This document shows, piece after piece, positions 7,687 through 8,159 of a stretch of DNA of 33,115 nt. Position 1 is the first letter of the stretch, and each line of letters begins with the position of its first letter. Both the position numbers and the translations under genes were made by a program. The notes beneath the pieces were generated by a model. That model was not told where the DNA came from and searched no databases. It saw nothing but the letters and a program-made list of their open reading frames with translations. Source of the stretch: Escherichia coli (GTDB lineage Bacteria; Pseudomonadota; Gammaproteobacteria; Enterobacterales; Enterobacteriaceae); assembly GCF_003334385.1 (NCBI RefSeq), contig NZ_QOWN01000049.1. The stretch is one strand, 5' to 3'.

Positions 7687-7929
7687 ATGATCGAAGCCTA
7701 CAAAATACTTATTAATAACGCGTTGCAGCGTTACCACTTCGAACTTGCAAACCGGGGCGTAACTAAGGATGAAAGCCTTCGTAACTCACTGCGCGGCGCA
7801 ATTATGGGACTGTATAACTGCGCGCTGGGCAGCGATGACCGTGAAGCGCTGGAAGAATTAAAGTCGATTATGACAGAACTGTTTGAAGGTGAAATTGTCG
7901 AGCCTTACTTCACAGGAGTGGCAGCATGA
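7687..7929 (+). CDS. Hypothetical early protein (80 aa)
   Basis: ATG 7687 with aaagga RBS; stop overlaps the next start (ATGA). Confidence 0.55.
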   Translation: MIEAYKILINNALQRYHFELANRGVTKDESLRNSLRGAIMGLYNCALGSDDREALEELKSIMTELFEGEIVEPYFTGVAA

Positions 7930-8051
7930 GCATATTCCTTTCATGGGTAATTCTGATTATCTCCGTGCTTATGGCAATCGGCATTATGCGAATTATCCAC
8001 ACACTGAAGGATATCGAATTATTCTTTACCGGCGATAAACGCCGTAAATAA
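7926..8051 (+). CDS. Small hydrophobic peptide (41 aa, one predicted TM)
   Basis: MSIFLSWVILIISVLMAIGIMRIIHTLKDIELFFTGDKRRK; ATGA overlap with the upstream gene suggests translational coupling; below the track length cutoff. Confidence 0.35.
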   Translation: MSIFLSWVILIISVLMAIGIMRIIHTLKDIELFFTGDKRRK

Positions 8052-8063
8052 AGCGAAAACCTT

Positions 8064-8159
8064 ATGAAGAATGTAAAAGCAATACACACCATCGCCACTG
8101 TATGGGTGATATTTCAGGTGAGTGCGCTTATCTGGTTAGCCCTGAAGATCTGGGAATAA
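8064..8159 (+). CDS. Small hydrophobic peptide (31 aa)
   Basis: MKNVKAIHTIATVWVIFQVSALIWLALKIWE; weak RBS; speculative. Confidence 0.2.
   Translation: MKNVKAIHTIATVWVIFQVSALIWLALKIWE

Follow-up and report, generated by a model that had tools for sequence, protein, structure and literature searches.

Do two very short hydrophobic reading frames lying in tandem in an Escherichia coli prophage encode peptides that are made by the phage, and what could such peptides do? Small membrane proteins are systematically under-annotated, and the early operons of phages are rich in uncharacterised host-takeover factors. We studied a 33,115-nt stretch of E. coli DNA (contig NZ_QOWN01000049.1), hereafter the window, in which the original prediction had placed two tandem ORFs for single-transmembrane (TM) peptides of 41 and 31 aa. 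Direct reading of positions 7400-8700, with ORFs listed down to 20 aa, confirmed the coordinates of both to the base: ORF1 occupies 7926..8051 and ORF2 8064..8159, both in the positive strand and both with an ATG start. The encoded sequences are MSIFLSWVILIISVLMAIGIMRIIHTLKDIELFFTGDKRRK (ORF1) and MKNVKAIHTIATVWVIFQVSALIWLALKIWE (ORF2), each with a single hydrophobic stretch of membrane-spanning length; their best 19-residue Kyte-Doolittle means were 2.75 and 2.01, respectively. Our overall explanation, to which we give a probability of about 0.6, is that ORF1 is a gene, that ORF2 is probably one, and that both specify single-pass inner-membrane peptides of early lytic growth with a presumed role at the host membrane.

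Genomic context of the tandem ORFs

A megablast search with positions 7600-8300 showed 100% identity in E. coli G1/2, G6/7 and G8, and 95-98% identity in nine further complete genomes. In the annotated context of G1/2 the prophage adjoins dmsABC, and its integrase and HTH repressor genes are located in the minus strand. The rightward order is a cox-type gene, DUF4761, DUF4754, a 126-nt 'hypothetical protein' CDS and the gene of a 76-aa hypothetical protein, followed by those of a 3'-5' exonuclease, a ParE-like protein, a Dam methylase and, at a greater distance, a replication endonuclease. The isolated phages related to the region were P88 and its relatives only (Xuanwuvirus, Peduoviridae, P2 family). 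Judged from these comparisons, the window is a P88-like (Xuanwuvirus, P2-family) E. coli prophage, and the gene order together with the P88-type relatives assigns both ORFs to the early operon of such a prophage, after the cox-type gene and before that of the replication endonuclease; the original prediction had likewise put them in an early operon.

Immediately upstream of ORF1 is the DUF4754 family gene, of 80 aa (7687..7929, positive strand; called by PGAP; phrog_2549, E=1.8e-28), whose product was modelled by AF2 as a three-helix bundle with a pLDDT of about 85. The next early gene after ORF2 encodes the 76-aa hypothetical protein (8266..8496, positive strand; called by PGAP; phrog_22206, E=1e-45). 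A word-index search with the DUF4754 protein returned near-identical proteins only, and fold searches of PDB and BFVD with Foldseek yielded nothing significant. Two other genes of the early region were recorded. A 151-aa hypothetical ORF in the minus strand (6452-6907; WP_047645004.1) lies antisense in the interval that separates the cox-type gene from DUF4761 in the rightward early region, and may be an inserted accessory gene. Positions 9087-9314, between the 3'-5' exonuclease and Dam methylase genes, encode a 75-aa 'ParE family toxin-like protein'; this gene overlaps the dam start, and no adjacent cognate antitoxin is annotated.

Sequence and conservation of ORF1

The ATG of ORF1 (7926-7928) and the TGA of the DUF4754 gene (7927-7929) form a 4-nt ATGA overlap, and the 3' end of the DUF4754 gene contains the ORF1 Shine-Dalgarno (SD) sequence, AGGAG (7914..7918, positive strand), 7 nt 5' of the ATG. 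The anti-SD duplex was calculated at -7.0 kcal/mol, the background averaging -2.4. ORF1 corresponds to the 126-nt PGAP CDS of G1/2 (WP_016232595.1, 100% identical), and its P88 homologue is gp07, annotated as 'membrane protein' (YP_009113050.1), which also has a 4-nt overlap with the DUF4754 gene. The TM segment spans about residues 3-24, the AF2 model is one helix covering residues 1-34, and the C-terminal tail is amphipathic and basic. Since the N-terminus is uncharged, whereas R22 and the KRRK tail are on the C-terminal side, the positive-inside rule would give ORF1 an N-out/C-in topology.

We compiled 99 ORF1 loci from isolated phages, E. coli genomes, IMG/VR contigs and public assemblies. 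The ATGA overlap was present in every one of them, which bears out the proposed coupling of the first ORF to its upstream gene. ORF1 was intact in 97 loci (37 or 41 aa; 27 distinct peptides), and the two broken loci presented one late frameshift and one stop after residue 30. In frame 0 pN/pS (Nei-Gojobori) was 0.1-0.4, and most comparisons of the other frames gave values of about 1 or higher; dS was saturated relative to P88, and variable alignment columns were distributed 19/8/27 over codon positions 1, 2 and 3. These measures put ORF1 far outside what chance would give. Few clusters, all of the ORF1 family, were recovered in a profile search of 1.84 billion representative proteins, with E values down to 2e-23; tblastn against P88-like phages gave E=1e-10 to 8e-11, and the order DUF4761-DUF4754-ORF1 was retained in the most divergent family members.

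The positions invariant or nearly so were F4, S6, W7, L10-V14, G19, R/K22, I23, I24, K28, I30, E31, F34, T35 and G36. The ORF1 of the window shares with the rest of the family its similarity to P88 gp07, the ATGA position after DUF4754, and a TM helix with the conserved S6-W7, G19, R/K22 and K28-x-I-E31. Helical periodicity of the conservation, which would mark a packing face, was suggestive but not significant (P = 0.06-0.12). The closest described counterparts are P88 gp07 and the RefSeq hypothetical proteins WP_016232595.1 and WP_000021704.1: ORF1 is 68-73% identical to the P88-type peptides, which occupy its position and share its ATGA overlap; the P88-type peptides have 37 aa, whereas the window's ORF1 reaches 41 aa through a 4-residue basic C-terminal extension, KRRK. 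On this evidence ORF1 belongs to an unnamed family, well conserved and limited to P88-like (Xuanwuvirus) phages, and it is certainly a genuine gene that has already been annotated.

Relationship of ORF1 with the DUF4754 gene

The invariant overlap, seen in 99/99 loci, could mean that the DUF4754 protein depends on ORF1 as its anchor in the membrane or as its partner, the coupling fixing the ratio of the two within one inner-membrane complex. The distributions of DUF4754 and ORF1 in the phage collection were equally narrow, and 12 of the 14 DUF4754-bearing records had ORF1. Also in E. coli SCU-106 a divergent DUF4754 allele precedes an ATGA-coupled 34-aa hydrophobic peptide in the ORF1 position (MSSTLIIIASWVILLASFVVSYFVVKLLTQYLNL; L007, 1379-1483); this peptide, not annotated by PGAP, is weakly ORF1-like, with a shared SWVIL core and a pairwise E=0.004. 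The alleles themselves argue otherwise: ORF1 peptides 95% identical to each other sit behind DUF4754 alleles that give no BLASTP alignment at all, and therefore the pairing is not allele-specific. Moreover, the AF2 model of a DUF4754-linker-ORF1 fusion with paired alignment consisted of the three-helix bundle plus a single helix, with no confident complex (pTM 0.47, linker pLDDT below 50). We consider the obligate partnership unlikely. The mosaic evidence argues against allele-specific co-evolution of ORF1 and DUF4754, and a generic partnership would be a secondary possibility.

The presence of unalignable DUF4754 alleles beside near-identical ORF1 genes points to a mosaic recombination junction at the ATGA overlap, and indicates that ORF1 is better conserved than its upstream neighbour. 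When the window (7687-7929) was compared with locus L003 (1151-1390), the DUF4754 alleles were unalignable by BLASTP and the adjoining ORF1, ORF2 and downstream genes were 95-100% identical. In phage 503458 (L123, NC_049341.1) positions 125-450, the DUF4754/ORF1 region, were multiply frameshifted and contained ORF1 fragments in two frames, due to either sequencing errors or decay. This phage was dropped as a case of DUF4754 without ORF1, the record being riddled with frameshifts and having ORF1 remnants in other frames.

Origin and coding potential of ORF2

ORF2 begins 12 nt past the ORF1 stop, and its product consists of a TM core between a basic N-terminus (MKNVK) and a short tail. The basic N-terminus predicts an N-in/C-out topology, opposite to that of ORF1; the two peptides gave no BLASTP alignment with each other and are not paralogues. 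ORF2 is carried by a lineage-specific 133-nt segment (8052..8184, positive strand) with AATAA at both flanks, delimited by alignment with E. coli 2013C-3033 and SCU-106. The segment is missing from these two otherwise collinear prophages and from all P88-type loci, and it was found in 21 of 5426 complete E. coli genomes, all in one sub-lineage; ORF2 would have been acquired or retained along with it.

Several of these properties, and others, would fit a chance frame: ORF1 would then be the sole gene, and ORF2 an untranslated frame in a recently spread intergenic insertion whose apparent constraint comes from few substitutions and shared ancestry. ORF2 has no SD sequence, its anti-SD duplex of -1.8 kcal/mol being at background level, whereas all neighbouring genes are at or below -5.4. 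PGAP left it uncalled on account of its length of 31 aa and the missing SD, although the exact peptide is present in nr (KGM81220.1, DAR61386.1). No homologues appeared outside the context directly behind a 41-aa ORF1, be it in phages, plasmids or elsewhere in E. coli (tblastn of phages and plasmids; degenerate DNA patterns in IMG/VR and metagenome contigs). In shuffles of the 133-nt segment an ATG-ORF of at least 28 aa arose in 11% of cases; on the other hand, one with a membrane-like hydrophobic window arose in only 0.1%.

The comparison of about 28 segment-bearing loci, IMG/VR and metagenome contigs included, bears on the same question. ORF2 was intact in all of them, as 8 protein variants of 31, 33 or 34 aa, and the gap between the ORF1 stop and ORF2 was always 12 nt. 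Between the two deepest lineages pN/pS was 0.18-0.41 in frame 0 (binomial P 0.003 to 0.04) and exceeded 1 in either of the remaining frames, a signal that comes from about 16-20 substitutions in non-independent comparisons, most of them from only these two deep lineages, as the reading by chance would have it. All the replacements were conservative (V/A, V/L, I/V, S/C, T/S and N/H), and the TM core was kept in 8/8 variants. Variant L024 has a 3-nt insertion that keeps the frame. The sole 1-nt indel in ORF2 lies three codons 5' of the stop and exchanges the tails KIWE* and KNLGII*, so that the C-terminus occurs in two frames, a point for the chance frame. Divergence climbs abruptly past the stop: relative to the window, L112 and L120 differ at 6/96 nt inside ORF2 and at 10/26 nt directly after it.

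A structured non-coding RNA in place of ORF2 was unsupported. Folding of the ORF2 segment and the downstream leader was no better than that of shuffles (z about 0), and Rfam, searched over 7000-9000 at E<=10, gave one chance match elsewhere only. The fold is at random level and the segment has no Rfam match; no non-coding explanation competes with ORF2.

The shuffles and the substitution pattern across the 8 variants place ORF2 moderately beyond chance. We consider its translation fairly probable and a chance frame rather unlikely; ORF2 is probably an unannotated micro-gene confined to one sub-lineage. Of the conservation and translation signals by which the original prediction was to be judged, ORF1 has both (99/99 loci, an SD sequence), and ORF2 presents constraint in one narrow lineage and lacks the SD. 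The earlier reading was descriptively right and is partly supported; ORF1 is already annotated as WP_016232595.1 and P88 gp07.

The leader downstream of ORF2

The 133-nt segment is followed by the conserved non-coding leader of the 76-aa gene, 81 nt long (8185..8265, positive strand), which is almost invariant across lineages with strongly differing flanking coding sequence. Its elements, in the same strand, are a perfect palindrome of 16 nt, AAGGCATTCATGCCTT (8215-8230), a T-rich run 9 nt past the palindrome (8240-8252) and the SD sequence AGGAG of the 76-aa gene (8254-8258). The leader was not called by the terminator scan, folded like its shuffles and had no Rfam match. The palindrome might serve as a dyad for protein binding, as a hairpin in processing or stabilisation, or as a partial terminator.

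In P88 (L002) the spacer after the ORF1 homologue has a conserved hairpin, TCCGC-N4-GCGGA(GG), at about 3085-3098, with equivalents in L005, L008-L011, L017, L020, L034 and others. Pairing of its stem was kept in 12/12 distinct sequences: one C-G pair had become U-A, a compensatory change, and one U-A pair had become U-G. The 4 loop bases varied freely. The relative position of this hairpin matches that of the palindrome in the window.

Proposed expression and role of the peptides

We propose that both ORFs encode small single-pass inner-membrane peptides expressed from the early (Pe, cox-to-A) operon of the P88-like prophage. From their position 3' of cox and 5' of the replication gene, expression would be expected after derepression or infection and not in the lysogen; both peptides would be made upon induction or infection, and neither in the repressed state. 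ORF1 would be translated through its coupling with DUF4754, by means of the ATGA overlap and the SD within the 3' end of the DUF4754 gene. Its TM helix would continue into an interfacial amphipathic helix bearing the conserved motif K28-x-I-E31-x-x-F34-T-G. For ORF2, termination-reinitiation after ORF1 appears the likely route, because there is no SD, the spacing is fixed at 12 nt and the A-rich leader is largely unpaired by prediction: ribosomes ending at the ORF1 UAA would restart 12 nt downstream.

Once made, the peptides may act as dispensable accessory 'host-takeover' factors that bind and modulate one or more host inner-membrane proteins in early lytic growth, in the manner of known small membrane proteins of bacteria and phages. 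Their dispensability is suggested by the absence of ORF2 from most relatives and by the truncated or frameshifted ORF1 in 2/99 loci. No family match for either peptide was obtained in Pfam, NCBIfam, PHROG, PADLOC, PDB sequences or Rfam, and literature searches on DUF4754, the peptide accessions and P88 early genes returned nothing relevant and no paper mentioning the peptides. Accessory early-lytic inner-membrane peptides that bind host membrane proteins are most likely, and constitute the best-supported working model. A bolder form of it, quite doubtful in our judgement, would make ORF2 a micro-gene of very recent origin, restricted to one lineage and either captured with the 133-nt insertion or born de novo, without a ribosome binding site of its own and translated by reinitiation only, which forms with ORF1 an antiparallel two-peptide membrane module targeting a host inner-membrane machine in early lytic growth.

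Two other roles were weighed against this model. In size, single TM segment and charged end the peptides resemble TisB, Ldr, Hok and pinholin-like peptides, and one or both of them might be toxins similar to those of type I or to holins, damaging the host membrane by depolarisation or permeabilisation. Type I toxins do occur in prophages (PMC12648545). However, neither peptide matched a toxin model of Pfam or NCBIfam: ORF2 had no Pfam match even at E<=10, and the best Pfam matches of ORF1 were DUF6007 and Fumarate_red_D, with E about 0.05. The TatA/E family was rejected as noise of TM composition, its score being 12.4 bits (E=0.11) against an NCBIfam cut-off of 104. Neither an own promoter nor an antisense promoter or antisense RNA was found above chance, and no antitoxin RNA of Rfam was matched. 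The promoter and terminator scan gave nothing above chance: promoter-like sites numbered 2 against 1.9 expected, none placed for ORF2 or its antisense strand, in a consensus scan that may miss weak promoters. The genes lie moreover within an early polycistron and form neither a lysis cassette nor a separate unit. A holin or pinholin was discarded on account of the early-operon site (cox-type gene to replication endonuclease) and of the lack of a match with PHROG lysis families.

The other role is that of superinfection-exclusion or lysogenic-conversion factors made from the prophage. Small membrane proteins often mediate superinfection exclusion, as T4 Imm and HK97 gp15 do, but the present genes belong to a repressor-controlled early lytic operon, 3' of cox, with no separate promoter above chance; their early lytic timing disfavours lysogenic conversion and exclusion in the prophage state. 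Nor did either peptide match PHROG or any family of the PADLOC-DB defence models (0 families). Membrane toxins and exclusion or conversion factors are both very unlikely in our estimate.

Significance and comparison with known systems

The results do not alter current understanding; their value lies in a cleaner annotation and in two inexpensive candidates for overexpression or interaction screens. ORF1, better conserved than its neighbours, is for that reason a reasonable candidate for a targeted functional test, and ORF2 illustrates how PGAP can overlook an sORF that is likely to be coding.

Three known systems can be set beside the tandem ORFs. The type I toxins (Hok/Gef, Ldr, TisB, Ibs, ShoB and ZorO) are similar to ORF2 in shape, that is, about 30 aa with a charged end and one hydrophobic helix; ORF2 differs in having no match with their families and no antisense RNA or own promoter found, and in being polycistronic, 12 nt behind another ORF. 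As for its translation, reinitiation by scanning after a short upstream cistron is known to occur where an SD-less AUG shortly past a stop, in an A-rich stretch, lets terminating ribosomes restart. In the scanning model of Adhin and van Duin and the 70S scanning model ORF2 would find its place, since it likewise has an SD-less AUG 12 nt past a stop in an A-rich context, a likeness drawn from the spacing and the missing SD.

A parallel for the proposed role is given by the small inner-membrane regulators AcrZ, MgrB, MgtS, Blr and Caulobacter SidA. These have no sequence relationship to ORF1 or ORF2, and they are host genes of stress regulons, whereas ORF1 and ORF2 are genes of a phage early operon. 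Like both peptides, nevertheless, they are shorter than 50 aa and have a single TM helix without any catalytic domain, and regulators of this type act by binding larger membrane proteins (PMC12648545).
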